Source of the DNA: Armatimonadota bacterium
GTDB lineage: Bacteria; Armatimonadota; SYMT01
DNA: 64,000 nt
Direction: 5' to 3'
NCBI GenBank assembly: GCA_046292385.1
Contig: JBKBRF010000008.1
Coordinates: 32,001 to 96,000, forward strand
Positions 3,892 to 49,474 of this stretch are shown here, piece by piece. The translations under genes and the position numbers were made by a program. Each line of letters starts with the position of its first letter. Within the stretch, counting starts at the first letter, position 1. The notes below the pieces were generated by a model that was not told where the DNA came from, made no database searches, and worked only from the letters and a program-made list of their open reading frames with translations.

Positions 3892-4492
3892 ACTTCTCAC
3901 CGGCGTTCCACCCCGTGCCCTCACGCGGCGGAGCGGCCCTCCCGCGTGGGTGGCCCACCCGCAGTCCTTTCACGCTCCGCCTTCGGCTCCGCTAGCGGAT
4001 TGCTCCGGGCGTGCGCTCCGGCAGCCTGCGCCCCGCGACCGAAGACAACGATTCCCGCATTGCGGTGGTTCACGGGCCGCCCCGCCGCGCTCAAGCAGCC
4101 ACCCCCGGGTGCCCGCAAGCGGGCACCCGGGGGTGGCCACAAGTGAACCCCTCCAGCCCTGCCGCCGGCAGCCCTTCCGGGCTCCCATGGATTTGCAGGA
4201 ACCTGACCGGTGGCGTCCGGATGTGCGGCCGCAGGCGGCACTGGAGGGCGGCATTTGTGACCACCCCTGGGAGCCAGGGGTGGTCGCTCGACGGCGGCCG
4301 ATTCAGCCCGTGAACCAGACTGCTGTAGCAGTAGAGCGCACTGGCGCGGGATGAGCGCAGCGGTACGCACTCCCGGAGAGGCCCGCTAACGGAGCGAAGC
4401 GGAGTGTGAAAGGGCCGCCGGAGGGCACTCGCCGCGGGAGGGCTGAAGCGGCCGACTAGGGCGTGGGGTCGGTCTCACGGGTTCAACGCTGC
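3892..4492 (+). repeat. ~600-bp nested palindromic element, copy A (complete)
   Basis: Outer arms 3905-4014 and 4367-4470 are imperfect inverted repeats; perfect 19-bp stem 4098-4137; second ACCACCCCTGG..CCAGGGGTGGT palindrome at 4260-4284. Confidence 0.92.
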
Positions 4493-4605
4493 ATGACGCT
4501 GAGCCACAGCAGGCTCCGGAGCAACTCCAGCAATTCACGCGTCCTGAGCCGCCCCGGTGGTAAGACAGGAGAAAGGGCCTGCCAGGAGGCGGATCGGAGC
4601 GGCGG

Positions 4606-5916
4606 ATGAAGCGGTTTCTACAGGGATTGATCTTCGGGGCGGCGGTCGGGGCGGCGGTAGTCCTTGCGGCGGCGCCGGCGTTCGCGCAGCGCCCATCTTC
4701 TCTACCGGAAGAGCGGCCCGGGGGCGCCCTGGAGCGCGCGGAGCGTCCGGAGCTGGCGGTGCGGGTGACGCCGGAGATGGAGCGCTACTCCTCCACCCGC
4801 TACGCCCTCTACTTCCTCCGCAGCTTCCTGGGACTCCTGATCCTGCTGCTCTTCCTGTCCACCGGAGCCAGCGCGCGGCTGCGGGACCTGGCGGAGCGGC
4901 GGACCGGCAACCCGGTGCTCCGGACCTTCATCTACTTCCCGCTCCTCTGGCTCGGCATCACGGTCTGCTCGCTGCCGCTCTCCTTCTACAGCTCCTACCT
5001 GCTGCCGCACCAGTACGGGCTCTCCAACCAGACCGCCGCCGGCTGGGTGCAGGACGCGCTAAAGGGCTACGCGCTCACCGCGGTGATCGGCTCGCCGGTG
5101 GTGGCTCTGCTCTACTGGTCGCTCCGCCGCAGCCCGCGGCTCTGGTGGGTCGGCTTCTGGGTCGCGTGCATCCCGCTGCTGATCGCGGCGGTGCTGCTGA
5201 CGCCGCTGGTGGTCGACCCGCTCTTCAACCGGTACCGCCCGCTGCCGGAGTCGCCGCTGCGGGAGAGCCTGCTCGAGATGGCGGAGCGTGCCGGAATCGA
5301 GAACAGCCGCGTCTTCGAGGTCGACGCCAGCACCCGCACGAAGGCGGTGAACGCCTACGTGACCGGAATCGGTGGCTCGGCGCGGATCGTGCTGTGGGAC
5401 ACGCTGCTGGAAAAGCTGGATGACGACGAGGTGGTCGCCGTGATGGCACACGAGATGGGGCACTACGTGGAGCGCCACGTGGTGATCGGGCTCGGTGCCA
5501 GCATCGTCGGCACGCTGCTCGTCTTCATTCTGGTCGACCGCGGCGGCCGGCGCATCCTGGCTCGCAGGGGCGACCGCTGGCGGGTGCGCGGGCTCGACGA
5601 TCTCGCCGGCTTTCCGCTGGTGCTGCTCCTCGTCTCCGCCATCAACTTCTTCGGCGCCCCGGTGGAGAACGCCGTCTCCCGGACGATCGAGCGCCGGGCG
5701 GACGACTTCTCGCTGCGCCTGACGGGGGACGGCCGCGCCGCCGCCTCCGCTTTCGTGAAGCTCAGCGAGGCGAATCTCTCCCACCCGGCGCCGCCCCCGT
5801 TCATCGAGCTCTGGCTCTTCAGCCACCCGCCGCTGAACGAGCGGATCGAGAAAGCCTTGAGTTATCGATCATCAGCCAGCGCGGGGCTCGGGGAGGCGCC
5901 AGAGGACCAGCCCTAG
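4606..5916 (+). CDS. M48 family (Ste24-like) membrane zinc metallopeptidase
   Basis: HExxH 'AHEMGH', 'NAYVTG', 'ERRADDF', 'SHPP'; multiple TM segments. Confidence 0.9.
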   Translation: MKRFLQGLIFGAAVGAAVVLAAAPAFAQRPSSLPEERPGGALERAERPELAVRVTPEMERYSSTRYALYFLRSFLGLLILLLFLSTGASARLRDLAERRTGNPVLRTFIYFPLLWLGITVCSLPLSFYSSYLLPHQYGLSNQTAAGWVQDALKGYALTAVIGSPVVALLYWSLRRSPRLWWVGFWVACIPLLIAAVLLTPLVVDPLFNRYRPLPESPLRESLLEMAERAGIENSRVFEVDASTRTKAVNAYVTGIGGSARIVLWDTLLEKLDDDEVVAVMAHEMGHYVERHVVIGLGASIVGTLLVFILVDRGGRRILARRGDRWRVRGLDDLAGFPLVLLLVSAINFFGAPVENAVSRTIERRADDFSLRLTGDGRAAASAFVKLSEANLSHPAPPPFIELWLFSHPPLNERIEKALSYRSSASAGLGEAPEDQP

Positions 5917-7113
5917 TGCCAGGGCGGTGCCGACCGCGCCCGCGGCGAAGATCGGGCTGAAGCCGACCGCGCTGATCATCGAGCCGGCGGCCAGCGGCAG
6001 CAGCACGCGGAACGGGCCGGAGAAGAGGTTGAAAACGGCGGTATAGGTGCCGCTGCGCTGCGGAGGGCAGAGCTCCAGCACGTAGTTCTGGGCGCAGACG
6101 GCCCAGCCCTGGAGCGCCAGCTCGTTCAGCAGGAAGACCGGGTGCATCCAGAGCGGGCCGTCGGCGCCCCACGCCAGGGAGACCGCTCCCAGCCCGGCGA
6201 AGGTGGCGAGCTGGATGGCGCGCAGGTTACCATACCGGTCGGCCAGCCAGCCGATCAGCAGGTAGGTGACCGCGCGCCCCACATTGAGCACCTGGTTGTA
6301 CTCCGCCACGGTCCGCTCGCTCGCCCCGAGGCCGGTGATGGCAAAGTCGGTATAGAACGCGCCGGCCATCTGGTTCAGCGCGAAGAGCGCGACGCCGATG
6401 CAGAGCCAGAGGATGCGGGAATCGCGCCGCACCAGGGAGAGCGCCTTGCGCACCGGCTCCGGGGGTGGGATCTCGTGCTCCTCCGGGATGACCTCCCGCA
6501 TCACGCCCAGCGGAAGCAGGGTGACGGTCTGGATCACGAAGGCCGCCAGGAAGCAGGCGGCGTAGCCGTTGGGGAAGCCCCAGGCGCCGATGAACCGCTC
6601 CGCCAGGACCGCGCAGCCGAGACCCAGCACTCCCGCCGCCGCCCCGCCGAGGCCGTAGAGGCGCCCGCGCCGCGCGGCGGGAATCGTCTTGGCGATCAGC
6701 TTGTAGTAGGCGGGCAGGTTGGCGCCCAGCGCCAGGTTCATCACGAGCCAGCAGCCGAAGAAGGCGAGGAGCAGCGCGGACCGGCTCTCGCTGAAGCCCC
6801 AGCAGAGCACCGCCAGCACCAGGAGCATCAGGCGCTCCAGCAGCCCGACGCCGAGCACCCAGTACCGGACGTTCCGCAGCCGTTCGATGCGGCTCGCCAC
6901 CAGCACGCCCGGCACCAGCCAGCCGAACAGCATCAGCGCCGGGATCATGCCGATGGCGACCGGGCTAGGGGTGAGCTGCTTGACGAACAGCGGCAGGATC
7001 GTGAGGTGGGAGATGAACGCGACCCCGGTGTTCCAGCCGCACGCGTCGATCAGCGCCGCGCCGAAGTTCCACCGCCGGTCGGCCCGCGTTTCCCGTGGAG
7101 AGTCCGGTTTCAG
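5872..7113 (-). CDS. MFS transporter (start uncertain; possibly CTG at 7113)
   Basis: About 12 hydrophobic segments and 'GWLADRYG' MFS motif; MFS-like TM1 sequence continues upstream of the ATG at 6948. Confidence 0.8.
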   Translation of the reverse strand: MKPDSPRETRADRRWNFGAALIDACGWNTGVAFISHLTILPLFVKQLTPSPVAIGMIPALMLFGWLVPGVLVASRIERLRNVRYWVLGVGLLERLMLLVLAVLCWGFSESRSALLLAFFGCWLVMNLALGANLPAYYKLIAKTIPAARRGRLYGLGGAAAGVLGLGCAVLAERFIGAWGFPNGYAACFLAAFVIQTVTLLPLGVMREVIPEEHEIPPPEPVRKALSLVRRDSRILWLCIGVALFALNQMAGAFYTDFAITGLGASERTVAEYNQVLNVGRAVTYLLIGWLADRYGNLRAIQLATFAGLGAVSLAWGADGPLWMHPVFLLNELALQGWAVCAQNYVLELCPPQRSGTYTAVFNLFSGPFRVLLPLAAGSMISAVGFSPIFAAGAVGTALALGLVLWRLPEPRAG

Positions 7114-7131: not shown

Positions 7132-8283
7132 CTAGACCGCCAGCCCGACGATGGCCGACCGGAACTCGACCACCAGCGTGCGGCCCACCAGGGTGAGGTC
7201 CGGCACCATCCGCCGGGCCCGCAGCTCCCACGCCGGCTTACCGGTGGCGCGGTCGAGCGCCAGCACCAGCCAGCGGCCCTCCGGCTCCGGCGTATTCACG
7301 CGCAGGTAGAGCCGCTCCGCGTCACCGTCCAGCCCGTGCACCTGGCCCACTTTTCGCTCCCAGCGCAGCTCGCCGGTGGCCGGATCGAGGGCGAGGAGGC
7401 GCCCGCTCCAGGTTTCCGCGAAGAGCAGGTCGCCCTGGACCCGCAGCTTGAAGATCCGCTCCTCCCCCTCCGGCTCCCGCTTCCAGAGGCGGTCTCCGGT
7501 GAGCGCGTCGACCGCGTAGGCGGTGCCGTCCGTGAAGTAGCAGAGCATGCCGTGCGACACGCCCGGCTCCTCCACGCTGCCGGTGTTCTCCAGCCGCCAG
7601 CGGACCTGGCCCGAGACCAGGTCGACCCCCATGGCGCCGGCCTCGTGGCCGGAGATCGGGAGGAGGTCGCCGTTTGCCTGGCCGACGACCATCGGCTGCC
7701 CCTCCGCAGAGAGCGACCACCGCCGCGCCCCGCCCGCGGTCGCGAAGCCCTGCACGACTGCTTGCTCCGGATCCGAGACCACCAGCAGGTCTCGCTCCGG
7801 GAAGGGATAGAACTCCGGCTCCCCCTCCAGCGGAGCGCGCCACTCCTGCCGGCCGTCCGCCCGCGAGAGCGCGAACATCGGTCCCGGCCGCCGCTGCGTG
7901 ATCGCGGCGTAGAGGTGGCGCGGGTCGATGCCCAGCGTGTTCACCCGTCCGCCCAGCTTCTGCGCCCAGGCGCGCCGGCCGGTCGCCAGCTCCAGCGCCT
8001 CCAGCTCCTGCCCGCGCGCCAGGCACGCCAGCTCCGCGTCGACCGCCACCTCGTCCGGCAGCGCGGGGGAAGGTGCCTCCCACCGCACGGCGCCGTCCGC
8101 CGCCTCCCGCACCAGCAGCCGCTCCTTCTCCATCAGCAGCACGGCCCCACTGGCGGGCAGGCTCTGGGCCCACACCTGGCGCGCGGCGTGCTCCCACGCC
8201 ACGTCCGGCTGGCCGCCGGGGCAGTCTCCCCAGGAGTATTCCGGCTCGGCGGGTGCTTCTCGGTCGGGGCGGTTCTTTGGCAT
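7132..8283 (-). CDS. PQQ-like (BamB-like) beta-propeller repeat protein
   Basis: Repeated 'ALDxATGxxRW' motifs. Confidence 0.82.
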   Translation of the reverse strand: MPKNRPDREAPAEPEYSWGDCPGGQPDVAWEHAARQVWAQSLPASGAVLLMEKERLLVREAADGAVRWEAPSPALPDEVAVDAELACLARGQELEALELATGRRAWAQKLGGRVNTLGIDPRHLYAAITQRRPGPMFALSRADGRQEWRAPLEGEPEFYPFPERDLLVVSDPEQAVVQGFATAGGARRWSLSAEGQPMVVGQANGDLLPISGHEAGAMGVDLVSGQVRWRLENTGSVEEPGVSHGMLCYFTDGTAYAVDALTGDRLWKREPEGEERIFKLRVQGDLLFAETWSGRLLALDPATGELRWERKVGQVHGLDGDAERLYLRVNTPEPEGRWLVLALDRATGKPAWELRARRMVPDLTLVGRTLVVEFRSAIVGLAV

Positions 8284-8520
8284 CTCGTTAGGGGTCTAGG
8301 TTCAGGGCAAACGGTCGAGCCTGCGGGGCGTACGGTGAACGTGCCGCGCGCTCTCCGGAGACCATCTTGCCTCAGCCGGTTCGGATTCGGCCAGGAACGT
8401 ACGCGAAAGCGGCTCCCGAGACGTCCAGGGGACGCTGGGAGCCGTAAAGAGACCGCACCCGGGCTTGCCTCGTCCCGCCGCTGCAAACTACGGGGCTAGA
8501 CGGCGTAGGACGCCGAGGCC

Positions 8521-10449
8521 TCAGTGGGCGGGGGCGTCCGGGATGTAGTCTTTGCTCATCCCCAGCTCTTCCGGCGCGTGGAGTCGGAGCATCAACGAGT
8601 CGACCCCCTTGGGGACCTCCGCGGCGGTCAGCGCGCTCACCAGCCACATCAAGCCCAGGGAAAGCGGCACGCCCCAGATCGCCGGCTGCTCCAGCAGCGT
8701 GCGGACGATCGGATCGGGAGCCCAGGCCAGGATCTTCTTGTCGATCAGCATCGTGGAGATGATCGCTCCCAGGCTGGCGAGGCCGCCGATCAGCATGCCG
8801 GCGGCGGCGCCCTTGGCCGTGAGCCCTCGCCACCAGGCGCCCAGCAGCAGCAGCGGGAAATAGCTGGCGGCGGCGATGGCGAACGCCCAGCCGACGAGCA
8901 TGGCGATGTCCCAGCTCTCCGCGACCATTCCCAGCAGCGTGGCCAGAATCCCGACCCCCACCGCCGAGATCTTGAACGCCTTCAGCCGGTCTTCCGGGGT
9001 GGCGCTCGGCCGCAGGATCGAGCCGTAGATGTCGTGCGCCATCGCGCTCGACATGGAGACCAGCAGGCCGCTGAAGGTCGACATGAACGCCGCGAACGCG
9101 CCCGCTACCGTCACGCCCTTCAGCACCGGGCCCCAGACGCCGCCCAGGATGGTCGGCAGCTCTACCACCACGGCATCGGTCTTGCCGTTGGCGTAGAGCT
9201 CCGGCATCAGGAAGCGGCCCATCGCGCCCCAGATCCCCGGGAAGATGTAGAAGACGCCGATCAGCACCATCACCCAGAGGGTGGTCCGCTTCGCCGCGCG
9301 CCCATCCGGATTGGTGTAGAAGCGGACCAGGATGTGCGGCAGCCCCGCCGTCCCGAACACCAGGCCCACGATCAGCGAGAAGGTGTAGAGCAGCGGATAC
9401 CCGTGCTTGCTGGTGAAGGCGCCGAAGGGACGTACCCACTCTTCGTTCGAGACGGTCCCGGCCACCGGCTCTCCTGCCAGGAACCGGACCTGCGCGGGCT
9501 CGGCAAACTCCAGCTTCGCGCCGGTTAACCGGCCGGCCAGCTCCGCGGGCTGGAGCTCCAGGCGGGTGCCGGCGGGCCAGAAGAGCTCCGCGCCGTTCGC
9601 CGCGGAGGGCGCCGACGACATGAAGTCGGCGATCGTCCACTCCCGGCCCCCCGGAATCGCCTTCACCGCCGGGGCGACGCTCCGGAGCCGCGTGTCGGTG
9701 GCGAGCTCCAGGACCACCGGCTCGGGCGGCAGCGTGAGGAAGTCTCCGGCCTTGAACGCGCGCGTCGCCTCCCGGGGGTAGACCGGCAGCGGCCGGTCCG
9801 AGCCGCCGCCGCCGGAGACGAACCGGTCGTACGGCCCGAAGTACGCCATCAGCACGAAGACCGGCGCCGCGATGGCGAACATCTTCAGCCAGTACTGGAA
9901 CGCCTGGACGAAGGTGATGCCCTTCATGCCGCCCAGCGCCACGTTGAAGGAGATGACCACGCCCACCAGCGCCACGCCGACCCAATAGGGCGTCCCCAGG
10001 ATGCTCGTCATCGCCACGCCAGCACCCTTCATCTGCGGCATCGTGTAGAAGAACCCGATGAACAGCACGAAGGTCACGGCGATCTTCCGGAACGAGGGGC
10101 TGGAGAAGCGCCCTTCCGCGAAGTCCGGGATCGTGTAGGCGCCGAAGCGGCGCAGCGGGCCGGCGATGAACAGCAGCAAGAAGAGGTATCCGGTGGCGTA
10201 GCCGACCGGATACCAGAGCACGTCGTAGCCGAACTTCATCACCAGCCCCGCCACGCCCATGAACGAGGCGGCGGAGAGGTACTCGCCGGAGATGGCGGAG
10301 GCGTTCCAGAACACGCTGACGGAGCGCCCTGCCACGAAGAAGTCGCTGGCAGAGCGGGAGATGCGCGTCGTGTAGATGCCCAGGCCGATCGTGGCCAGCA
10401 CCACGGCCGCCACCATCACCACCGGAATCCAGTCCAGGTTACCTGTCAT
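8521..10449 (-). CDS. Sodium:solute symporter, cation/acetate symporter ActP-like
   Basis: 'SGEYLSAASFMG', 'GTAGLPHILVRFYTNPD', 'AFAAFMSTFSG'; paired with an upstream DUF485 gene. Confidence 0.9.
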   Translation of the reverse strand: MTGNLDWIPVVMVAAVVLATIGLGIYTTRISRSASDFFVAGRSVSVFWNASAISGEYLSAASFMGVAGLVMKFGYDVLWYPVGYATGYLFLLLFIAGPLRRFGAYTIPDFAEGRFSSPSFRKIAVTFVLFIGFFYTMPQMKGAGVAMTSILGTPYWVGVALVGVVISFNVALGGMKGITFVQAFQYWLKMFAIAAPVFVLMAYFGPYDRFVSGGGGSDRPLPVYPREATRAFKAGDFLTLPPEPVVLELATDTRLRSVAPAVKAIPGGREWTIADFMSSAPSAANGAELFWPAGTRLELQPAELAGRLTGAKLEFAEPAQVRFLAGEPVAGTVSNEEWVRPFGAFTSKHGYPLLYTFSLIVGLVFGTAGLPHILVRFYTNPDGRAAKRTTLWVMVLIGVFYIFPGIWGAMGRFLMPELYANGKTDAVVVELPTILGGVWGPVLKGVTVAGAFAAFMSTFSGLLVSMSSAMAHDIYGSILRPSATPEDRLKAFKISAVGVGILATLLGMVAESWDIAMLVGWAFAIAAASYFPLLLLGAWWRGLTAKGAAAGMLIGGLASLGAIISTMLIDKKILAWAPDPIVRTLLEQPAIWGVPLSLGLMWLVSALTAAEVPKGVDSLMLRLHAPEELGMSKDYIPDAPAH

Positions 10450-10787
10450 CGGCCCTGCCGCTCCTCACGGATCATCTGCGCCTCCTCCGCCTCCAGCTTC
10501 TCGGAAGACTTCACGAAGTAGGTCGAGAGCGCCCAGGTAATGGGATAGAACGCGATCCCCAGGATGAACCAGGAGAGCGGGAAGCCGAAGACCGGCTGCT
10601 GGGTCCAGGCCGGGGTGAACTGGGTCAGGAGCGGGAGCCCGAGGATCAGCACCAGGAACACGGCCGCTACGGTGATACCGAGGCCGGCCTGCTGCTTCAT
10701 CAACCGACTCGCAAGCTGGGCATCGGTGAGATGCGGATGAGGGGAGCCTTCCTCGGCTCCGGGGTTTCGCTGCGTCTTTGCCGCCAT
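10446..10787 (-). CDS. DUF485-like small membrane protein (YjcH-like ActP partner)
   Basis: Two TM helices; ATGA overlap with the symporter start. Confidence 0.8.
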   Translation of the reverse strand: MAAKTQRNPGAEEGSPHPHLTDAQLASRLMKQQAGLGITVAAVFLVLILGLPLLTQFTPAWTQQPVFGFPLSWFILGIAFYPITWALSTYFVKSSEKLEAEEAQMIREERQGR

Positions 10788-10904
10788 GAATGAAGTCCGG
10801 TCCGCCGGCTCGGGCCGCGCGGAACACGGAAGTATTGGACAGGCACGCGCCGACCGCCTCCACCCGGTGCGGATGGGATGTCAGCGGAGATCCCTCCATC
10901 CCTC

Positions 10905-11348
10905 CGAGCGGCTCAAGCGACCACCCCCACCGCCCGCAAGCGGGCACCCGGGTGGTCACAGGTGAAACTCTCCAGCCTTGCCTCCGGCAGCGCTTCCGGG
11001 CTTCGCGAACCCCGATGCCCTGGGGGCACGAAGCCGGTCGTGCTGCACCGCCTGAAGGCAACCCGTCGGCGGCCGACCGTGCCCAGACCACAGGCGCCCG
11101 CCGGGTGCCAGTTGTGGCCACCCCTGGGCGGCAGGGGTGGTAGCTCGAAGGGTCGGGAGGCAGCCCGTGAGCTGCCCTATCGGCGCGGGTTACGCATCCT
11201 GGCGCGGGAAGAGCTTTTCGACGTCAGCTCCCGCAGCGGCCTGCTAACGGAGCGCAGCGGAGTGTGAAAAGGCCGCGGAGGGCCTTCGTCGCGGGAGGGC
11301 TGCCTCCCGGCACAAGGGCTCGGGGTCGGGTCGCGGGATCGACGCTGC
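10905..11348 (+). repeat. Nested palindromic element, copy B (left outer arm missing)
   Basis: GCTCAAGC-ACCACCCC site, core, CCACCCCTGG..CAGGGGTGG site, and a right arm nearly identical to the reverse complement of copies D and E. Confidence 0.9.
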
Positions 11349-11411
11349 CTCTCGACGAGAAGCAAAGACGCCCCACAACTAAGGGGTCCGCTGGAGTGAT
11401 TGGCCGCTTTC

Positions 11412-11462
11412 GCCTCGGACTAAAGTCGAGGCTACACGGAGCGAAGCCCGCCTTCGCGGGCT
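11412..11462 (-). repeat. GTAG-type REP-like hairpin unit inside a 127-bp insertion (11381-11507)
   Basis: Minus strand reads AGCCCGC-GAAG-GCGGGCT..GTAG-CCTCGAC-TTTA-GTCCGAGG. Confidence 0.65.
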
Positions 11463-11615
11463 CAGAACTCCCCGGGAAAACGTGTCGGTGACTTCCCGCA
11501 ACCCCTTTGGCCCCTGCCGTCTTGGGAGGTCCAAGCGCGCAATGGCCGACGGTAGAATCTGCGCATCCGGGCAAGAATCTCGGGGTGAGTAGCGCAGAAG
11601 CAGCTGGACACACCC

Positions 11616-14439: not shown

Positions 14440-14467
14440 GCCGTGGTGTGGGCTCGTTGTGTCGAAT

Positions 14468-14750
14468 GACGGCGTCGGCACCGAGAGTCCGACCCCGTGC
14501 CCTAGTCGACCGATTCAGCCCTCCCGCGTCGAGGGCCCTCCGCGGCCTTTTCACGCTCCGGCTTCGCCTCCGCTAGCAGGCCGCTCCGGAAGTGCACCCC
14601 GTATTGCGCTTCCCGCGCCACTTCGTCCTACCGCCCCAAAAGCCGAGTTCACGCGCTGAATCGGTCGCCGTCGAGCAACCACCCCTGATACTCCAGGGGT
14701 GGTCACAACTGCCGCCCTCCGGGCCATCCTGCGGCTGCCCCTCCGGACGC
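14468..14750 (-). repeat. Nested palindromic element, copy C (right half only, fused to a REP-like unit)
   Basis: Right arm, ACCACCCCTG..CAGGGGTGGT site and partial core match copies A, F and H. Confidence 0.88.
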
Positions 14751-14767
14751 CGGAGCCAGGCCCATCT

Positions 14768-14820
14768 GAGTCCCCGAAGGGGGACTTCGTGCCGTGGTTG
14801 CCGCGGTTTCAACCGCCCGG
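14768..14820 (-). repeat. REP-like unit (GTCCCC-GAAG-GGGGAC ... GTTGCCGCGGTTTCAACCGCCC)
   Basis: Reverse complement is 52/53 identical to 50698-50750. Confidence 0.85.
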
Positions 14821-14842
14821 TAGCTACTACCGCTAACCGCCG

Positions 14843-15970
14843 TCAGACGTAGTTGTAGCCGTACCACAGGTTCGGCAGCGGCAGCGCATTCGCCAGCACG
14901 TCTCGGATGCCGGACGGCAGCGGCGGCATCTCCACGCCGGTGTCGCTGGCGGTGCTGAAGAAGAGCGTCGTTGCCTGCGCCATGGTCGGCAGGCTTACCG
15001 TTTCGCTGCCCCACTCCAGCCGCACTCCCTCGCCCTCGGGTACGATCCGGAGCTGCTGCGCGGCGAGCTCTTCCAGAAGGGGGCGCACCGCCGTGAGGAA
15101 GCGCTCCGGGCTGATGATCCCCATGGTGGCGGAGTAGAGGAAGCGGCTGGAGGCCCAGCCGCGGGACTGCGCTACCTGCCGCCAGTCCGAGTCGTTCGGC
15201 TGTACCACCACGTCGGCGGCCTCCGCTCCCAGATCGCGCACCAGGCTGGGCAGCGCGCGGGAGAGGGCTCTGCGGCTGCCGGCGATCTCCCGTACGTGGA
15301 GCGGCTCTCCCGACCCCTCCGCCCCCTGTGCCGGGCGCTGGACTCCGGCGTAGGCCACGACCGCCCCGCCCCACCGGATGACGAAGAGGTCGGCGGGCCG
15401 GTTCATCAGCATCCCGCCTTCCATCAGCCGGCGCCAGTCTTCCATGGGACGGAAGAACCGTACCGGCTCCGCCTGGTAGAGGCTCGCCACGGCCGCCAGG
15501 TCCGCCCCCGCGTAGTGGCTCGACTGGTACGCGGGGTCCGGTTTGCCCGCGGGAACGGAGTAGGAGTCGAACGCGCCGACCTGCACGTACCCGAGCCGCT
15601 TGTAGAGGCCGCGGTCGCCGGAGATCAGCATCAGGCACGCGCCCTGCTCCACCGCCGAGGCGCGTGCCTCCGCCATCAGCCGGCTCGCGAGCCCCTGGCC
15701 CCGGTGCTCCGGGTCGGTGCCGACCGATCCGATCAGCGCGACCCGCAGGTTGGTGCCGAGAATGGCGGCGTCGCGCAGCACCACCCCCACGTGCGCCACG
15801 ATCCGGCCGCCGTTCCGCGCCACCCGCAGGTTCCGCCGGTTCGCCGGGTCGAAGAGGAGCGGATACTCCCGCACCATGTCGCCGGGACGCTCCGTGCGAA
15901 AGATGCGGTCGGCTAGCGCCCCCAACTCCTCCAGCTCGTCGGGGCCGCACGTTCCCAGCTCGTAGCTCAT
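14843..15970 (-). CDS. GNAT family N-acetyltransferase (Eis-like)
   Basis: Acetyl-CoA motif 'VGTDPEHRGQGLAS', 'LYKRLGY'. Confidence 0.85.
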   Translation of the reverse strand: MSYELGTCGPDELEELGALADRIFRTERPGDMVREYPLLFDPANRRNLRVARNGGRIVAHVGVVLRDAAILGTNLRVALIGSVGTDPEHRGQGLASRLMAEARASAVEQGACLMLISGDRGLYKRLGYVQVGAFDSYSVPAGKPDPAYQSSHYAGADLAAVASLYQAEPVRFFRPMEDWRRLMEGGMLMNRPADLFVIRWGGAVVAYAGVQRPAQGAEGSGEPLHVREIAGSRRALSRALPSLVRDLGAEAADVVVQPNDSDWRQVAQSRGWASSRFLYSATMGIISPERFLTAVRPLLEELAAQQLRIVPEGEGVRLEWGSETVSLPTMAQATTLFFSTASDTGVEMPPLPSGIRDVLANALPLPNLWYGYNYV

Positions 15971-16132: not shown

Positions 16133-18994
16133 CTATCGCCGCGAGCCGGAGACGGGGACGCGCACCAGGGGACGGGCCGGGTCGTCGCTGGCGATCTCGA
16201 GAGTTTGCCGGAAGCTCCCCGCGTTCTGCGGCGTGAAGGTGACGACCAGCTCCTGGGACTGCTTCGGACCGAGGACCACCGGTCCGGTAGGGCTGACGCT
16301 GAACGGCTCCCCGAGCGACTGCACCTGGAGCGCAAGCGGCCCCTTTCCGGTATTGCGAGCCTTGAGCCGCTCGACCCGGGTCCGGCTGCGGGTGACGCGG
16401 CCGAAGCTGATCTTTCCAGGCGTCAGGCGGAGCACCCCCTCCGCGGCCGGGGTGGTGATCGTCGCCAGGTTGGAGTACGGCGAGGCTCCCATGGCGCTGA
16501 CCGCCCGTACGCGGTACGTGTAGGTCGTCTCCGCGGAGAGCCCGAAGTCGCGGTAGCTCTCGGTCCCCGCTGCTACGGTGGCGATCGTCTCGAAGCCGTC
16601 GCCGTCCCAATCGGCGGGGACGCCCCCGATCCGGCGCTCGATCTGGAAGCCTCCTCCGTCCTGGAACCGGTCCAGCCAGGAGAGATGGAGGACGGTGGCC
16701 GCGTGCGCGGTCAGCGTCAGGTTGGAAGGCGGGCCGAACGGCGCGAAGCCGACCTTCGCCACAAAGGCGTCCTCCCCGCCGCTGTGAGTGGCACCCGGTC
16801 CATTCACCACGGGAAAGCCCTGGCCCGGCGTGGAGTAGGCGGTTCCGCAGACGTGGGCGACTCCCTGCGTGTCGAGCGCGATCCCCTCGCCCGTCTCGTC
16901 GTCGCTCCCGCCGATATAACCCGCGTAGACGAGCCCCGTCCCCCCGGGCTGGATCCTCGCCACGAAGAGATCGCTGCCGCCATTGTGCGAGAGGTCCGGG
17001 CCGGAAAGCGCGGGAAAGCCCTGCGCCGAAGACGACCAGGTGGTGCCGCAGACGTACGCGCCTCCCTGGCCGTCTACCGCGATGCTCTCTCCGTAGTCCG
17101 CGCCGGCGCCGCCCAGGTAGCCGCAGTATTCCAGCCCGGAGCCGCCCGGCTGCACCTTGGCGACGAACGCGTCGAAGTTGCCGCCGTAGACGAGCTCCGG
17201 TCCTACGAGGGCCGGAAAGCCCTGGTGGGGCGAGGAGAGGGTGGTGCCGCAGAGATAGGCCGCCCCTACGCTGTCGATCGCGATGCCTTGCGCCCAATCG
17301 GACCCGCTGCCGCCCAGGTAGCCGCAGTATGCCAACCCGGTGCCGTTCGGCAGTACTTTGGCGACGAAGCCGTCGGTCCAGCCTGCGAAGGTGGTGTCGA
17401 GCCCGCCGCTCACCGGAAACCCCGGACCCTGACCCGAGGCAGGGGCGGAGCTGGTCCAGCCGCACACGTAGGCGGCCCCCTGCTGATCGACCGCGATGCT
17501 GCTCGCGTAGTCGTCGTCGCCGCCGCCGATGTAACCGCAGTACTCCAGCGCGGCGCCGCTGGGACGCAGCTTCGCCACCCAGGCGTCGAGTCCGTTGTTC
17601 CACTGGAGGTCCGGGCCGGTCTTCACCGGGAAATCGAAGTACTCGGTTGCCAGGGTCCAGCCGCACACGTAGGCCGCGCCGTTCTGATCGACTGCGATCC
17701 CCTGCGCCCGCGTCCCCCAGCCTCCCCCGATATAGCCGCAGTACTCCAGCACGTCTCCCTTGGAATTCAGCTTCGCGACCCAGGCGTTCGGGTTGGAGTT
17801 GAGGGGTCCGTTGAAGGTGAGATCGGGCCCTACCCGCGCCGGAAAGCCCTGGCTCTCCGCCGAGTAGGTGATCCCGCACAGGTAGGCGCTCCCCTGCTGG
17901 TCCACCGCGATGGCGTTCGCCGAGTCCAGCCGGTGCCCGCCAATGTAGCCGCAGTAGAGGAGCCCCGCCCCATCCGGCCGCACCCGGGCGACGAACGCAT
18001 CCTGGCTCGTCCCTTTTACGAGACTCGGTCCGAACGTGACCGGGAAGCCCTGGAGCTCGGAGGAGCTGGTGGTGCCGCAGACGTAGGCGTAGCCCAGGCG
18101 GTCGACCGCGATGGCGTGGGCCGACTCGTCCGCGGCGCCGCCCAGGTAGCCGCAGTAGAGCAGCACGGTCGGATCGATGACCAGGGTCTGCTCGCTGTCG
18201 TACGCGCCGAGCCGGAAGGAGACGACGGGATCTCCACCCGGCCCCGCTTCGACGCGATAGGCGGAAGACACCGCAGCTCGGCTCCCTCCGGCCTGGGTGA
18301 AGCTCATCGGCGCCTCATCGACCACCGTTCGGATCGGATTCTCCAGGCGCAGCCGGCCGGCGTCGTCTACCTTCACCCGTTCGGCGCCGCGTACGCGCAG
18401 GCGGATGACGCTCGGGTCCGCGCCGGGCTGCACCTCGAACTGATACTTCAGGGCGGAGCCGTCGCCGCGATAGACCAGGTCGATCCCCGGCCAGACCTCC
18501 CGGTACCTCACGCCCAGGAAGCTCGGCACGCCGGACTGCCAGTCGGCCTGCTCACCGCGGAAGAAGCTGAAGACGCACCCGGCAGGCTCGCTGCCTACCA
18601 CTTCCACCGCCGGATTGCTGTCTACGAACTCGACCCCCAGCGTCCACCGGCGCTCCGCCTCCTCCAGGGCTGCTTCCGCCGCTGGACGAGAGCCGGAGCG
18701 CAGGAGCGCGGCGTCCGCGCGCGGTGGGCTGCCGGACCGCTCCCGCAGCGTGAAGCGCACTCCGGTGCGCGTAAAGCCGACGTCCGCCTCGCTGCCGCGC
18801 GTGGAGTAGAGCACCTCCGCGCCGGCCTGCCCGCGGTTCTCCACGAAATAGAGCGGCACCCGGGCGAGCGAGGCGGCCGCGGGCGCGCTCGTGGCCGGGA
18901 GCGGCTGCAGGACGCCCCCGGGGAGGGCGAGTGTCGCTGCTCCGCCGATCAGGGTCAAGAGCAAAGTCCACGGGGCGCGAGCAGGTGCGGACAT
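16133..18994 (-). CDS. Secreted SBBP beta-propeller repeat protein with FN3 and Ig-like (ASPM-SPD-2-Hydin-like) domains
   Basis: 'FVENRGQ', 'LVIDP'; repeated 'YCGYLGG..D..IAVD..G.AYVCG.T.S'; FN3 'TYTYRVRA'; C-terminal 'NTG..L..F.P..G'. Confidence 0.85.
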   Translation of the reverse strand: MSAPARAPWTLLLTLIGGAATLALPGGVLQPLPATSAPAAASLARVPLYFVENRGQAGAEVLYSTRGSEADVGFTRTGVRFTLRERSGSPPRADAALLRSGSRPAAEAALEEAERRWTLGVEFVDSNPAVEVVGSEPAGCVFSFFRGEQADWQSGVPSFLGVRYREVWPGIDLVYRGDGSALKYQFEVQPGADPSVIRLRVRGAERVKVDDAGRLRLENPIRTVVDEAPMSFTQAGGSRAAVSSAYRVEAGPGGDPVVSFRLGAYDSEQTLVIDPTVLLYCGYLGGAADESAHAIAVDRLGYAYVCGTTSSSELQGFPVTFGPSLVKGTSQDAFVARVRPDGAGLLYCGYIGGHRLDSANAIAVDQQGSAYLCGITYSAESQGFPARVGPDLTFNGPLNSNPNAWVAKLNSKGDVLEYCGYIGGGWGTRAQGIAVDQNGAAYVCGWTLATEYFDFPVKTGPDLQWNNGLDAWVAKLRPSGAALEYCGYIGGGDDDYASSIAVDQQGAAYVCGWTSSAPASGQGPGFPVSGGLDTTFAGWTDGFVAKVLPNGTGLAYCGYLGGSGSDWAQGIAIDSVGAAYLCGTTLSSPHQGFPALVGPELVYGGNFDAFVAKVQPGGSGLEYCGYLGGAGADYGESIAVDGQGGAYVCGTTWSSSAQGFPALSGPDLSHNGGSDLFVARIQPGGTGLVYAGYIGGSDDETGEGIALDTQGVAHVCGTAYSTPGQGFPVVNGPGATHSGGEDAFVAKVGFAPFGPPSNLTLTAHAATVLHLSWLDRFQDGGGFQIERRIGGVPADWDGDGFETIATVAAGTESYRDFGLSAETTYTYRVRAVSAMGASPYSNLATITTPAAEGVLRLTPGKISFGRVTRSRTRVERLKARNTGKGPLALQVQSLGEPFSVSPTGPVVLGPKQSQELVVTFTPQNAGSFRQTLEIASDDPARPLVRVPVSGSRR

Positions 18995-19356
18995 GAGAGG
19001 CGGTCTCCGGGAGCGAACGGGTGCGGCCGGGCGCCGAGTGCCCTTCGCTGCGGCGTTCACCGCGGACGGCTGGTTGACCTCCGAACAGAGGGCCATCTCA
19101 CGGTAAAGAGATCGGCGGCAGAATGAAGGGCGCGTAATCGGGCGCGGGTTCGACAGTCCCGTCCGGAGTCCGAGAGGGAACGCGGGAGGCTGCGGCGAAT
19201 CGAAGACCAGTCCGCTCCCTCGCCCGAAGCCCGCGTAAGCCTCGCGCGGACCTCCCGGCGCTGAATGACTTGCGCCGGATTGCGGGACGGACTCTAGATT
19301 TCGCATCGATTCGCCGGCACTGCCGCTCTGGCAGCATCCGATAGTAGGAGCGTTCC

Positions 19357-20663: not shown

Positions 20664-20850
20664 GGATTCTTCGACACAGAGGGACACAGAAGAACCAACA
20701 GAGGGGACACAGAAGTGAACGGGACGGGCGGGGCTTGCCGTGAGCCGAGGGGCTCGACGAGCGGCAGTAGGCAGGTAGGCCCGGCCTTATCCACCTGAAT
20801 TCTGTGTCCCCTCTGTTCCGTCTGTGTCTCTCTGTACTACTCACCGCGAG
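20664..20850. repeat. Inverted ACACAGAG-type repeat pair flanking element D
   Basis: GACACAGAGGGACACAGA...AACAGAGGGGACACAGAA paired with TTCTGTGTCCCCTCTGTT...TCTGTGTCTCTCTGT; same motif at 23578-23620 and 24484-24530. Confidence 0.8.
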
Positions 20851-20953
20851 AATCTTGCGGGGATGCGCAGATTCTGCTGGCGGTCATCGCGCGCCTGGGC
20901 CTCGCGGAGCCGGAGGGTGCCAGTTGTGTGGCGCTTTTGCTTCTCTTCGAGCT

Positions 20954-21562
20954 GCAGCCTCGATCCCGCAACCCGACCCCGCGCCCTTGTGCCGGGAGGC
21001 AGCCCTCCCGCGACGAAAGCCCTCCGCGGCCTTTCACACTCCGCTCCGCTCCGTTAGCAGGCCGCTGCGGGAACTCCCGCCGAGAAGCTCATCCCGCGCC
21101 AGGAAGCGTAACCCGTGCCGACAGGGAAGCTCACGGGCTGCCTCCCGACCCTTCGAGCTACCACCCCTCGCCAGGGGTGGTTACAACTGGCGCCCTCCGG
21201 GCGCCTCCGGTCTGAGCACGGTCGGCCGCCCGGTTGCCTCAAGCCGGTGCCGCACTACCAGCTTCGCGCCCCCAGCGCGTGGGGGTCTGCGAAGCCCGGA
21301 AGCACTGCCGAAGGCAGGGCTGGAGGGGTTCACCTGTGACCACCCCTGCGAGGGGTGGTCGCTTGAGCCGTCTGGAGCGGCCCGTGAACCGTGATCTGGC
21401 TACAGGCGCCGCCTACGGACGCGGAACGCAGCGCGCCGGGGAGCACGCCCGCAGCGCCCGCTAGCGGAGGCGAAGCCGGAGCGTGAAAGGGCCGCGGAGG
21501 GCCACCCACGCGGGAGGGCCGCTCCGGGCGGGGAGGGCGCGGGGTGGACCCTCGGCGCGATC
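20954..21562 (-). repeat. Nested palindromic element, copy D (complete)
   Basis: All modules present in reverse orientation; core 21187-21333. Confidence 0.92.
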
Positions 21563-21639
21563 CTGATCTCGACTATCCGAGCAGTCTTCCGCCGCCGTGA
21601 GATTGGTGGCGGCATCAGCCGTGCTGTGTCTGAAATCCG

Positions 21640-22710
21640 CTACGGCAGCCGCAGGCGGAAGGCTCTCGGCTGGCCGTTCAGGCGGCCCTGGCCGCAGACC
21701 TGGTTCGCCGCGTTGATCCCGTAGGCGATCTGCAGGTTCCAGCCGCTCCCCTTCGGCAGCAGGGTGTTCAGGTCGATCACCTTGTTCCCGCGCCAGAGGG
21801 TGGCGCGCAGCTCGCCGCCGGCCGTGGCGGAGTAGCCGACGATCTTCCCGGCCGGGTCGATGCCGTAGGCGCAGCTCACCGCTTCGCCGGGAAGGCTCTT
21901 CAGCGCGGTGGGGCGGGCATTCTTCCGGCTGGAGCGCCAGGCCACCGCGCGGCGCGTGCGGAAGCCGAGGTCGTCGGTCTTCCCCGTCTCCGACTCGCCG
22001 ACCGCAACTCCCCGGGTGTTGATGGCGTAGGCGGTGGCGAACTTCGAGCCCCTCAGCCCGCGGAGCGGCAGGAGCCGGCTCCCCTGGAACCGGGCCGGGG
22101 CGAACCGGACGGTGCCGTCTTTCTCCTCGCCGGTTGAGTAGCGGCCGGCCATGGTACCGCCGGTGTTGATGCCGAAGGCGAGGCTATAGTCGGCGTCATC
22201 TCGCGTCGCGTTCGGGCCGCGCAGGCCTTTCCACCGCACGCCGCGGAGCAGCCCCTCGGGGGTATCCGAGGTGCCGGCGATCAGCGTCGTGCCGGCAAGC
22301 GACCGCGCCGTACTGGACGAAGCGCCGGAGAGGACGGCGAGGTCCAGCATGGTCTCCTCGGCGTGGATGAAGGCGTGGTTGAACAGGCGTCCGGAGCCGG
22401 CGTCGGTGAGCGACTCCCCCACCACCTGCGGCCCCAACACCGCGCGGCCGAAGCTGTCGGTGCCGCCGGGGAGCGTGCCGAGATCCTGCGCTTCCCTGCC
22501 CAGCCAGGCCGTCGCGTGGAAGCGGCCGTCCGGCATCTGGGACGCGCCGGCGACGCGCCCGCTGGCGCAAATGCCGTACGCCACGCTGTAGGTGCCGCCG
22601 GGAAGCGGGGGGAGCGCGTCGATCTTGACACGCGCGGAGCCGACCTCGTCCTGGCAGAGCGCCAGGGCAGCGGCAGCGAAGATCAGGGCGGCGGCGCGGC
22701 GGGTCGACAT
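21640..22710 (-). CDS. Secreted HAF-type extracellular repeat protein
   Basis: Signal peptide; 'DLGTLPGG', 'AYAIN..G..VG.S', 'HAF', 'DLNTLLP..SGW.L..AYGIN'. Confidence 0.85.
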   Translation of the reverse strand: MSTRRAAALIFAAAALALCQDEVGSARVKIDALPPLPGGTYSVAYGICASGRVAGASQMPDGRFHATAWLGREAQDLGTLPGGTDSFGRAVLGPQVVGESLTDAGSGRLFNHAFIHAEETMLDLAVLSGASSSTARSLAGTTLIAGTSDTPEGLLRGVRWKGLRGPNATRDDADYSLAFGINTGGTMAGRYSTGEEKDGTVRFAPARFQGSRLLPLRGLRGSKFATAYAINTRGVAVGESETGKTDDLGFRTRRAVAWRSSRKNARPTALKSLPGEAVSCAYGIDPAGKIVGYSATAGGELRATLWRGNKVIDLNTLLPKGSGWNLQIAYGINAANQVCGQGRLNGQPRAFRLRLP

Positions 22711-22813: not shown

Positions 22814-23578
22814 ATGAGTAACCGGGGACGTAAGTCGGCAGCCAGGATCGCAGTGGCAGTGGGAGTGCTGCTGCTGGTCTGCGCCTTTCTCTTCCGCGGG
22901 CACGCCGCGTCTGCGCTCGGCGGCGAGCCCGCGCTGACCGTCTACGTGCTGCGCAGCGGCAGCGCGGAGCAGGACGGCGCGGTGGAAGCGGCGCTGCAGG
23001 AAGCGGGCTACTCCGTGACGATGGGCGTGCCGACCCCGGTCTGGGACGGCACTTCCGCAGACCTCACCGCGTTCGACGTTGTGGTGCTGCTGAACAGCTA
23101 CAACTGGATCAGCACGGAGATGCCGTCTGCCGGCCAGCGCGCGCTGATGAGCTACGTCGCCGGCGGTGGCGGGCTGATTACGGCGGAGTGGCTGATGTGG
23201 AACGTCTACCGCAGCGGCGCCGCCTCCGGCCTGGCCCCGGCCCTCCCCGCCACCACCTCCAGCTACGTCGCCGCCGTCGAGCCGATCACCTACACTCGCG
23301 CGGCGGCCGACCCGGTGCTGGACGAGGGTGTCGCCGACTCCTTTACCTTCGCGCCGAACGACGTCTTCGGGAGCGAGTCGACCCTCAAGCCGAAGCAGGG
23401 CGCCACCGTCTTCTACCAGAGCGGCGGCGCGAGCGGCGCGGGTGTCCTCGGATGGGACTACCGCGAAGGGCGGGTGCTCAGCTTCTCCACCTTCATCAGC
23501 CAGGCCGAGCTGGCCCACCCGGACTACCGCCGCCTCTTCCGGAACGGGGTGCGCTGGGCGGCGGGGGATTCTTTTTAG
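22814..23578 (+). CDS. Secreted protein, probable class I glutamine amidotransferase-like/ThuA-like fold
   Basis: Signal peptide; 'DLTAFDVVVL', 'YVAGGGGL', 'LFRNGVRWAA'. Confidence 0.6.
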   Translation: MSNRGRKSAARIAVAVGVLLLVCAFLFRGHAASALGGEPALTVYVLRSGSAEQDGAVEAALQEAGYSVTMGVPTPVWDGTSADLTAFDVVVLLNSYNWISTEMPSAGQRALMSYVAGGGGLITAEWLMWNVYRSGAASGLAPALPATTSSYVAAVEPITYTRAAADPVLDEGVADSFTFAPNDVFGSESTLKPKQGATVFYQSGGASGAGVLGWDYREGRVLSFSTFISQAELAHPDYRRLFRNGVRWAAGDSF

Positions 23579-23817
23579 ACACAGAGGGACACAGAAGAAC
23601 CTGCAGAAGGAACACAGATTTGAATTGAGCCAGCGCTCTTGCCGGGTTCCGATAGCCCAACGGGAGTCGGAAGGGGCCTGAGTCGCTTGCTCACTTCTCT
23701 GTACTACTCACCGTGAGAGTTTTGTCGAGCCGGGCAGATTCTGCCGGCGGGCATGGCGCGTGGAGCTTGCGAAGCGGAAGGGGCCAGTCTTGAGGCATCT
23801 TTGCTTCTCTTTGAGAT

Positions 23818-27942: not shown

Positions 27943-28000
27943 CGAGCTTTCAGTTGGGTCCGGTCCGGCTCTTGGATGCCCTACTCTCTTTTCGGGGAGG

Positions 28001-38914: not shown

Positions 38915-39142
38915 GTGGGAAACCGGGCGAGGGGTACCGCTGGCGCGGGGTCGGTGGGTTTTCCATTCTAGCCGGTGGGAGGGCTGGGCGGAACCCATGG
39001 AGGGATTGTCGGCGGGCTCCAGGGAGTGGCTGTATGACGGGTGAGAGATTCGCGCTGGGAGTGATGCAGCGTTGGAACCGCGGGACCGCCCTCTTGCGAT
39101 AGTCGAGGGACTCCTTGTCCGGTTCGTGCACTACCATCGTGG

Positions 39143-39723
39143 GCAGCGTTGGAACCGCGGGACCGACCCCGAGCCCTAGTCGTCCGCTTCAGCCCTCCCG
39201 CGACGTGTGCCCTCCGCCGGCCCTTTCACACTCCGCTTCGCTCCGTTAGCGGGCCGCTCCGGGTGTTCAGCCTGGCATGCTCTTCCCGCGACTCCGCGCG
39301 CTACCGTGACAGAGGCCCAGTTCACGGGCTGAATCGGCCGCCGTCGAGCTACCGCCCCTGACACCCAGGGGCGGTCACAAAGGGCGTCCTCCGGCAGAGC
39401 CTACGGCTCCGCCTCCGAACGCCACTGGATAGGCCTTCGCTCGCGCTACCGAAGGAGCCTGGAGGCGCTGCCGGAGGCAGCGGCGGAAGGCTCCACCTGT
39501 GGGCACCCCTGGAGAGGGGTGGCTGCTTGAGCCCGGCGGAGTGGCCCGTGAGTCGTTGTATCGAAGAAGGCGCAGCGCCCGAACGCGGCGCGCAGGTCCT
39601 CGCCGCGCACGCCCGGACCAGCCCGTTAGCGCCGGAGGCGCGTGGGAGGGCTGAGGGAGGGCCAACCACGCGGGAGGGCCGGTCCGCCGGGTGAGGGCAC
39701 GGGGTGAAACCTCGGGAAGAAGC
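39143..39723 (-). repeat. Nested palindromic element, copy G (complete)
   Basis: All modules present; palindrome variant ACCGCCCCTG..CAGGGGCGGT carries a compensatory change. Confidence 0.92.
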
Positions 39724-39883
39724 GCTTCTCGTGAAGCGGAAGAACACCCCGGAGAAGGCCTCCCACCTCCCCCGCCGAAGTAGTCGATGGCGGCACGCAC
39801 GTTTTCGCCTAAGCAGGAGCCTGCCTGCTCGCCACAATCTAGGTCGGCACGCGCCGGGGCGTGCCGGTTGCCGGAGAGCCGCG

Positions 39884-48425: not shown

Positions 48426-48753
48426 GGCTTGCTTTTATTGGGAGGCCGGCCGCAGCCGGGCCTGTTGCTTGAGTCTCTAGCGCGGACTTTCAGGCGGCTC
48501 CATCGGGCGTCTGACGCCGGAGCCCGGGGCCCGTCGATCCTGCATCCGGCCGATACTACCCCGGCGTCTGGATCTCAAACCCTTCCCCGGGAACGGAGCG
48601 GGCGCTCTTGCCGGGAGCGGTTCCCTTGCGAGCGCCGGGAGGGCTTGCGGTTTAGGTGGGGGCGTGCCGGGTAGAAGGGAGTGGCCGGCCGGTTCGCGGC
48701 TGGGTTGCAATCCAGCGTGTGAAGGCGAGGATGACCTCATCTTGCAGGAAGCG

Positions 48754-49359
48754 GCATCTCTTCGAAGTTCCACCCCGTGCCCTCACCGGGGGGAGCGGCC
48801 CTCCCGCGTGTTTGGCCCTCCCTCAGCCCTTTCACGCTCCGGCTGCGCCTCCGCTAGCGGGCTGGTCCGGGCGTGCTCTTCGCCAGGCTGTGCTCCGCGT
48901 TCGCAGGCTGCGGTGTCTCCATCACGGCGACTCACGGGCCGCTCCCCCCGGCTCAAGCAACCACCCCTCGCCAGGGGTGGTCACAAGGGGAGCCCTCCGC
49001 CGCTGCCTTCGGCCGCGCCTCCGTGCTCCTTTGGACTGGCTGGCTGCGTCGTGACTGGCTCGGTAGTCCAGAACTCGGACGTCCAGAGGGGCAGCCGCAG
49101 GCTGGACCGGAGGACGGCACCTGTGACCACCCCTGGGCGCCAGGGGTGGTCGCTCGACGGCGGCCGGTTCAGCCCGTTAACCCGGGTTTTGGTGAGATGG
49201 GGGGCCGTGGCGCGGGAAGAGCTTCACGCGGCGCACTCCCGGAGCGGCCTGCTAGCGGAGGCGAAGCCGGAGCGTGAAAAGGCCGCGGAGGGCTCTCGCC
49301 GCGGGAGGGCTGAACCGACCGACTAGGGCGCGGGGTCGGTCCGGCGGTGCCGACGCCGC
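48754..49359 (+). repeat. Nested palindromic element, copy H (complete, with an extra inverted terminus at 49388-49420)
   Basis: All modules present; perfect 16-bp arm stem 48786-48801/48936-48951. Confidence 0.92.
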
Positions 49360-49474
49360 TCTGAGTTCAGAAATGCCCCGTGTCCGAGTGAGGGCACGGG
49401 GTGGAACCCCGGGGAGATGCCGTCACCGGGAAGTAATCCTACAGAAACGGTCAAGAGAAGAGACAAAGAACACG

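Follow-up and report, generated by a model that had tools for sequence, protein, structure and literature searches.

A 64,000-nucleotide stretch of contig 8 of an uncultured soil Armatimonadota bacterium (here called the window; the genome assembly comprises 7.04 Mb in 91 contigs, is 98% complete and has 70% GC) carries eight copies, A to H, of a large non-coding repeat, and these raise the question of whether such a repeat is a mobile element, a structured RNA or a regulator of the genes beside it. A first-pass annotation of the window had described ~600-bp elements that each form one giant hairpin, had proposed an undescribed mobile element or structured RNA family, and had suggested that copies be counted genome-wide by profile search, that a covariance model be compared with Rfam, and that empty sites and a gene-enclosing copy be sought. 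The family is real, namely an undescribed, abundant, large structured interspersed repeat. Its basic repeat is a module of ~300 nt, and the ~600-nt "nested palindrome" is a tail-to-tail pair of two diverged types of this module. On balance, and with restrained confidence, we take the family to consist of undescribed, non-autonomous selfish interspersed repeats built on that structured module.

The 300-nt unit, its fold and its distribution

Direct-repeat families connect all eight window loci into one family; each locus was found where it had been reported or slightly beyond, and the constant module order is visible in an alignment of six copies. Inverted arms, long but imperfect, are present in every full copy; they measure 35-69 nt and are 70-81% complementary in each pair. 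The genome-wide count was made with a profile from the six full copies, which gave 233 matches merging into 118 loci, and a 22-base spaced motif of the element occurs 85 times in the genome, never as a reversed control and never in 40 relatives. Most genomic matches cover just one half of the ~600-nt profile, left or right, the two halves being diverged versions of one ~300-nt module, left-type and right-type. With a profile of this unit, nhmmer found 155 matches genome-wide, 127 of them near full length, which comprise 26 inverted pairs and 75 singles. Close pairs all share one geometry, with the unit heads outward, and 26 of 27 adjacent inverted pairs combine a left-type with a right-type unit (genome-wide, 60 units are left-type and 72 right-type). 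The reported size of ~600 bp therefore holds for the inverted-pair copies, whereas the basic unit is ~300 nt and copies D and E reach ~800 nt with extra terminal modules. The units are non-coding and located between genes, and their pairwise identity has a median of 60%, with blocks conserved above 90%.

The consensus of the 127 units has a 15-bp long-range helix, in which as many as four kinds of Watson-Crick pair occur at single positions. Counted on the C-rich strand, there are 554 A:C mismatches vs 185 G:T, so that the wobble pairs belong to the G-rich strand, and one C:A position present in 126 of the 127 units represents a conserved U-G pair on the opposite strand. When 28 units were folded in the G-rich sense with RNAalifold, 46 pairs were obtained, 20 of which show compensatory changes, and one U-G pair was invariant in all 28. 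Positions pair in 97.1% of cases vs 84.4% in shuffles and 35-51% in slid controls, and the covariation score of 0.393 (0.159 shuffled) was reached by none of 500 shuffles. On the G-rich strand the unit would thus be folded, from its 5' side, into a hairpin, an invariant YUGUGA linker, a second hairpin and the 15-bp long-range helix closing a multi-branch core. Small stems outside the core had suggested a 3'-terminal hairpin by eye; being absent from the consensus, this hairpin was dropped.

The conserved structure lies inside each unit, since the covariation is intra-unit and the arms of the 26 pairs are just 64-83% complementary to each other (median 67.5%). The giant hairpin of the first-pass annotation is therefore a by-product of two related units being paired, and 75 units have no partner with which to form one.

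The search of Rfam 15 gave no match over the whole window at the gathering threshold, and for copy F, at E values up to 10, it gave just three chance-level matches of 14-16 bits. A covariance model built from the units was run against 150 genomes of the phylum, and its matches were confined to two of six same-family genomes, with 16 copies in G005 (9.1 Mb) and 8 in G006; none was present in the four other family genomes, including G001, which is congeneric with G006. The two relatives belong to two other genera, so that the fold is common to three. In their 24 matches pairing reaches 91.1% vs 77.6% in shuffled sequences (none of 500 shuffles attains it), and the same U-G and G-U pairs are kept. 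Four pairs in G005 have the identical head-out geometry; an assignment of left and right types in the relatives was abandoned, the scores being too close. Two metagenome contigs bear true units with compensatory changes, collections of plasmids, phages and viral contigs contain no unit match, and the sole spaced-motif match in a further collection of genome contigs is not a unit. A full-text literature search, together with a preprint on non-coding families, revealed no description of such an element in the main texts. Because three genera carry the family and its median copy identity is 60%, it is old, and it is strongly expanded in the window genome. What stands of the original proposal is thus a non-coding, structured family absent from Rfam, with insertion evidence in one lineage; it may represent a mobile element or a structured RNA, and the search for a mobilising enzyme identified none.

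In G005 the units occupy variable regions, and their neighbours include a type I-E CRISPR-cas locus, a restriction-modification gene, AbiJ, Uma2 and a DDE transposase. On contig 3 of that genome (824000-843000), four units bracket the CRISPR-cas locus, two just past the far end of an array with a 61-bp period (7685-10490) and two between cas1 and a cas6e-like gene. In a locus on its contig 11 (positions 7917-8031 of that locus), two identical 37-nt repeats 78 nt apart form a mini CRISPR-like array ~500 nt from a unit, in a 6.7-kb stretch that has no gene calls under a crude filter. No protein gene recurs beside units in the relatives.

Within the window, unit matches by nhmmer and alignments resolve copy A (3879-4502, plus strand) as an inverted pair of a left-type (3879-4194) and a right-type unit (4193-4502) between divergent genes. 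Short inverted pairs also constitute copy F (27985-28609, plus strand; units 27985-28300 and 28304-28609), copy G (39137-39740, minus strand; units 39137-39442 and 39445-39740) and copy H (48737-49373, plus strand; units 48737-49040 and 49063-49373). Copies F and G align with a common centre, which implies that short pairs have also spread as pairs. Beyond copy H, a third, isolated left-type outer end of ~50 nt lies at 49385-49434 in inverted orientation. Copy C (14462-14755, plus strand) is one right-type unit alone, its fold being on the minus strand; it is adjoined at approximately 14756-14850 (minus strand) by an ~80-nt repeat rich in small hairpins, which is also found beside units on contigs 51, 17, 4 and 30 and in which metagenome contigs have loose ends, at 14784. 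The strand calls of the first-pass annotation agree with the order of left-type and right-type units. Elsewhere in the genome, eight same-strand units spaced ~3.5 kb apart on contig 40 were considered as a repeated cassette, an idea that was rejected as their flanking genes are unrelated. Another set of direct repeats in the window (16810-18175, with a period of 201/213 nt) is no DNA element; it encodes the SBBP beta-propeller repeats of the protein specified by a 1057-codon gene (16133-19306).

The copies were confirmed to lie between genes in any orientation, and the genes flanking those of the window are ordinary housekeeping and envelope genes. Relative to the G-rich strand, the gene beyond the outer end of a unit has the same orientation in 36 and the opposite orientation in 39 singles, and the corresponding counts for pairs are 23 and 29. 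This lack of orientation bias and the ordinary nature of the flanking genes argue against a role as a gene-specific regulator.

A lineage with defined ends and its target

Copies D and E belong to a subgroup of much higher identity that has sharp, unlike ends. Copy D (20832-21628, minus strand) is a long form of ~797 nt with units at 20939-21212 and 21286-21579, and copy E (23699-24488, minus strand) one of ~790 nt with units at 23803-24107 and 24153-24442. Copy B (10903-11598, plus strand) is a truncated long form, in which a left-unit remnant (10903-11006) and a right-type unit (11086-11363) are followed by the outer extension and a terminal module (11542-11598). Profiles of the terminal modules detected 29 left ends and 27 right ends in the genome, and 23 elements are complete with both. 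Seven of these measure ~402 nt and consist of the left end, one left-type unit and the right end; eleven measure 791-823 nt and add a right-type unit and an extension to the 402-nt layout; four deletion or insertion derivatives measure 550, 614, 643 and 890 nt. Inside these ends, the ~402-nt form has the C-rich strand of the module on the target strand, and both module orientations are found in the ~800-nt form.

The left junction is an exact CACAG in 20 of the 29 copies and differs by one mismatch in 5 more, and the right end is an exact ACAG in 17 of 27, usually followed by A. In copy D these motifs lie at 21624-21628 (CACAG, minus strand) and 20832-20835 (terminal ACAG), and in copy E at 24484-24488 and 23699-23702, respectively. 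The preferred target of the long form is the ACAG box, a ~48-nt repeat with four CACAG motifs of which the genome holds 16 intact copies; it is related to short tandem repeats and is usually preceded by a short T-run just past the end of a gene. In the window, intact boxes lie on the plus strand at 20673-20713 and 23578-23618. Copy D interrupts a box on the minus strand, separating its first part (21624-21640) from its distal part (20796-20831), and copy E abuts another (24484-24525, minus strand), the last CACAG of which forms the junction. Altogether, 6 of the 23 complete elements lie in or at an ACAG box, all in one orientation. In three of them, joining the flanks with one CACAG kept restores the whole box (nhmmer E values of 1e-17 and 1e-9 on other contigs and 1e-10 for copy D).

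Because the split boxes, together with the intact boxes elsewhere, amount to paralogous empty sites, this lineage is demonstrably mobile: it has inserted precisely and in a specific orientation 3' of CACAG, with a duplication of at most ACAG. It is not a classical MITE (a miniature transposable element with inverted repeats), as the two ends of the long form differ and any duplication is confined to this possible ACAG. In the short pairs, the inverted ends merely reflect the pairing of units, and no target duplication is seen. The earlier observation that the copies have no internal transposase and no clear target-site duplication was borne out. Distinct from the family is a ~240-nt classical MITE, having both terminal inverted repeats and a target duplication, whose copies interrupt the second hairpin of several units (contig 9, 132456-132692; contig 40, 35316-35543; contig 23, 108802-108953; contig 2, 197676-197827). 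It carries REP-like hairpins ending in ...CCACAG and is located at many contig ends.

Mobilisation and the role of the fold

If the repeats are selfish and non-autonomous, as we favour, an enzyme acting in trans from another locus would move them, and the likeliest route would be a single-strand one directed by a target motif, as used by the IS200/IS605 Y1 transposases. The fold would be that of a putative transcript, since the wobble pairs are strand-specific and the module lies in either orientation relative to the mobile ends, and such an RNA would serve the propagation or persistence of the element and not the regulation of neighbouring genes. Comparative evidence favours RNA over DNA as the folding molecule: the strand-specific wobble pairs do not vary between genera, low-copy genomes retain the fold, and in the ~402-nt form the target-motif strand holds the mismatched module, so that folding does not depend on a particular transposon strand.

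None of the copies contains a transposase, and no pair of units encloses a gene anywhere in the genome; the gene-enclosing copy that had been suggested as a lead was thus not found, and the idea of a composite element was rejected. Candidate enzymes were therefore sought elsewhere in the genome. Five Y1 (HUH) genes are present; by their motifs two are IS200-like and three RAYT-like, the latter being judged from these motifs to resemble the RAYT of E. coli. The five include genes at 61900-62790 of contig 40, 9667-10395 of contig 83 and 162855-163676 of contig 5, and on either side of the one on contig 51 stands a 24-nt hairpin, the two copies being inverted. Searches of the 98%-complete genome, with positive controls that worked, gave no match to the TnpB domains PF07282 and PF01385 or to the reverse transcriptase domain PF00078, which a group II intron or other retroelement would need. 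The RRXRR domain of IscB (PF14239) and the Y2 domain of IS91-type transposases (PF04986) also had no match, though the control for the former matched nowhere and that for the latter in no genome. An IS110 transposase was rejected as the mover. A multi-copy IS110-family element, found on contig 6 (73995-75293) and at several contig ends, has a CT core within the ~240-nt MITE as its insertion site, and this site and its ends are unlike those of the units; a second, distinct IS110 fills contig 91, and neither of these two loci contains a unit.

Several observations weigh against our preferred reading. First, none of the five Y1 loci carries long-form ends or units, all five genes being flanked by unrelated short hairpin repeats of their own, although an assembly in 91 contigs might miss such a locus; moreover, Y1 homologues in seven family genomes do not track the units and are present also where units are absent. 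Second, the ends of the mobile lineage do not have similar hairpins: the left end shows no more than an invariant 4-bp stem, and DNA parameters yield no consensus fold for the right end. Third, mobility is shown for the end-bounded lineage alone, because the 77 units outside it have borders that are fuzzy by BLAST extension among paralogues (the nearest paralogue being 76-88% identical) and show no enrichment of CACAG, which occurs at 3 of 53 borders vs 1 of 53 in the background. The lineage might accordingly be a small carrier that captured the module. Fourth, the proposed search for empty sites succeeded for paralogous sites of that lineage, but no clean orthologous empty site was found in relatives when three window stretches were compared with family genomes, among which synteny is weak; upstream of the SMC gene, relatives have a different gene of 709-733 codons in place of copy G and its neighbour. 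Contigs from four DNA metagenome runs, compared with 19.5 kb of sequence, likewise end at the elements; clean passage through or past an element is seen in none, one 2.87-kb joint connecting the similar flanks of D and E, and neither an empty site nor a polymorphism emerged from them. Finally, a scan of copies D, E and F and their surroundings detected no sigma-70-like promoter, and the folding energy of one unit taken by itself is just modestly better than that of shuffles, with the G-rich strand (z -1.9) doing no better than the C-rich strand (z -2.7).

A rival explanation is that the module is a non-coding RNA gene with a cellular role, as a trans-acting RNA, as the partner of a protein or as a cis element of flanking transcripts, that was multiplied by duplication and by hitch-hiking on a small, unrelated CACAG-targeting carrier; the module would then be no mobility device in its own right. 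We consider this unlikely, yet a serious contender. The complex, covarying, strand-specific fold with G-U pairs invariant over three genera would suit it, the strongly conserved blocks amid a median identity of 60% resemble the outcome of purifying selection and not of decay, and the two unit types are nearly always combined in pairs (26 of 27). CACAG targeting, moreover, is restricted to copies with the special end modules, within which the module lies in either orientation. More than 125 copies of a ~300-nt RNA gene would, however, be without precedent for a cellular RNA. The distribution is patchy even in one genus (G006 has copies and G001 has none), the copies of the low-copy relative lie in variable regions beside CRISPR-cas, restriction-modification, AbiJ and DDE transposase genes, and neither promoter-like sites (in the scan of copies D, E and F) nor an orientation rule relative to genes were found.

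A further explanation, which we judge improbable, is that the fold acts in single-stranded DNA, in an excised or replicating strand read by a single-strand transposase, as do IS200/IS605 ends, the REPs and REPINs served by RAYTs, and integron attC sites. Insertion directed by a target motif, in one orientation and without terminal inverted repeats, is of the kind expected, and Y1 genes, including three RAYT-like ones, are present. Many hairpin loops of the unit are C(GNA)G triloops, which are very stable in DNA, and G-T wobbles are tolerated in DNA too; the triloops in particular keep a role in single-stranded DNA open. Against this stand a multi-branch fold of ~270 nt that has no precedent in single-strand transposition, the C-rich, mismatched module on the very strand of the ~402-nt form that has CACAG 5' of the element, the cognate short repeats that the Y1 genes already possess, and the conservation of the fold where copies are few.

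The module could also be the RNA part of an undiscovered RNA-dependent mobility or DNA-targeting system, in which the YUGUG linker would read CACAG and orphan copies would be RNA-only satellites of a protein encoded at another locus, a position that HEARO RNAs held until IscB came to be understood; we give this a small chance, and a slighter one to the specific form in which it is a guide or scaffold RNA of an unrecognised RNA-dependent recombinase or nuclease, comparable to the omega RNAs of TnpB and IscB or the bridge RNAs of IS110, with orphan RNA-only copies dominating. Its size and complexity resemble such RNAs, and YUGUG, which is invariant and single-stranded, matches the CACAG target in reverse complement. 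The right-type unit of the ~800-nt form is oriented so that its sense strand runs to the right end and on into the flank, which corresponds to the layout of TnpB-type RNAs (PMC10055086), and a small RNA module spread by a transposase in trans has been published (PMC12288879). A complementarity of 5 nt is weak, however, and the variable Y does not covary with the target. The 98%-complete genome has no match to PF07282 or PF01385 and none to RRXRR (whose control matched nowhere), its multi-copy IS110 shares nothing with the units, and no protein gene accompanies units recurrently in the relatives.

We give next to no credence to the notion that the whole ~600-nt element is one long hairpin or cruciform serving as bidirectional terminator, insulator or RNase III substrate, for although every pair has inverted arms, pairs such as D and E often lie between convergent genes and one terminator-like site falls in the outer extension of D, arm-to-arm complementarity (median 67.5%, n=26) contrasts with 97% pairing inside units, the covariation is intra-unit, 75 units are single, and terminator-like sites number 3 vs 3.2 expected from shuffles.

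Comparison with known systems

Bacterial interspersed repeats are usually short, simple hairpins; the present module is as large and intricately folded as a riboswitch or guide RNA, exceeds 100 copies and is conserved across genera of a barely studied phylum. Its end-bounded lineage is a clean natural record of site- and orientation-specific insertion. If the fold is that of an RNA, it would be among the most abundant large structured RNAs of any bacterial genome and a candidate partner of an unknown enzyme; if it is that of DNA, the range of substrates of single-strand transposition would grow to include much more elaborate ones. Assemblies are broken and intergenic DNA is inflated by the family, and the covariance model lets others find and annotate it.

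Among known repeats, repetitive extragenic palindromes (REPs) are simple hairpins of ~20-40 nt, and REPINs measure ~100 nt. The present family resembles the REP/REPIN-RAYT system in being intergenic and of high copy number, in occurring as singles and inverted doublets with the doublet as a replicating unit, in lacking an internal gene and in its long-lived, patchy distribution, and the window genome has Y1/RAYT-like genes. It differs in that the unit is a covarying, multi-branch structure of ~300 nt, not a 20-40-nt palindrome with a head tetranucleotide; the arms of its doublets are of different types and pair poorly, and the RAYT-like genes are flanked by other short repeats. ERIC, Correia/NEMIS, bcr1, RUP and BOX are likewise non-coding intergenic repeats; they are co-transcribed with genes and fold, as RNA, into hairpins. 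Those, however, are simple hairpins of 100-200 nt with inverted terminal repeats and target duplications, whereas the unit described here exceeds them in size and is multi-branched, and inverted terminal repeats and target duplications are both absent from its mobile lineage.

HEARO and omega RNAs, which were first described as orphan motifs, are structured RNAs of ~150-300 nt that occur in many copies per genome, often without an adjacent gene, and are tied to mobile DNA. The units are similarly large, structured, multi-copy, often without an adjacent gene and linked to mobile DNA, but they have no Rfam match, neither TnpB nor IscB was found in the genome (the control for the IscB domain matching nowhere), and their inverted-pair layout is not a known feature of those RNAs. 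Another parallel is ssr9 of ISPpu9, an IS110-family element of Pseudomonas putida, which is described as a selfish RNA gene module moved by a transposase encoded elsewhere (PMC12288879). It has about eight copies, compared with more than 100 units here, and is tied to an identified IS110, whereas the units are unrelated to the IS110s of their genome. The bridge RNA of IS110 differs as well, in being encoded inside the IS110 itself, while neither IS110-type locus here contains a unit.

A close parallel to the end-bounded lineage is offered by IS200/IS605 elements, which are described as having a motif adjacent to the transposon and a similar one at the end of the element, along with an asymmetry of the top strand and minimal copies that are protein-free (PMC10055086). 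Like them, the lineage has asymmetric ends and no terminal inverted repeat, inserts in one orientation 3' of a short motif with no long duplication, ends in a motif resembling the target, and has protein-free copies for which mobilisation in trans is proposed. It departs from them in that its ends do not have similar subterminal hairpins, that no tnpA with matching ends was found, that its bulk is a large structured module of a kind not known in such elements, and that most units do not have these ends at all. By analogy, the end-bounded lineage would appear to work like an IS200/IS605 element, but we do not class it as a member.

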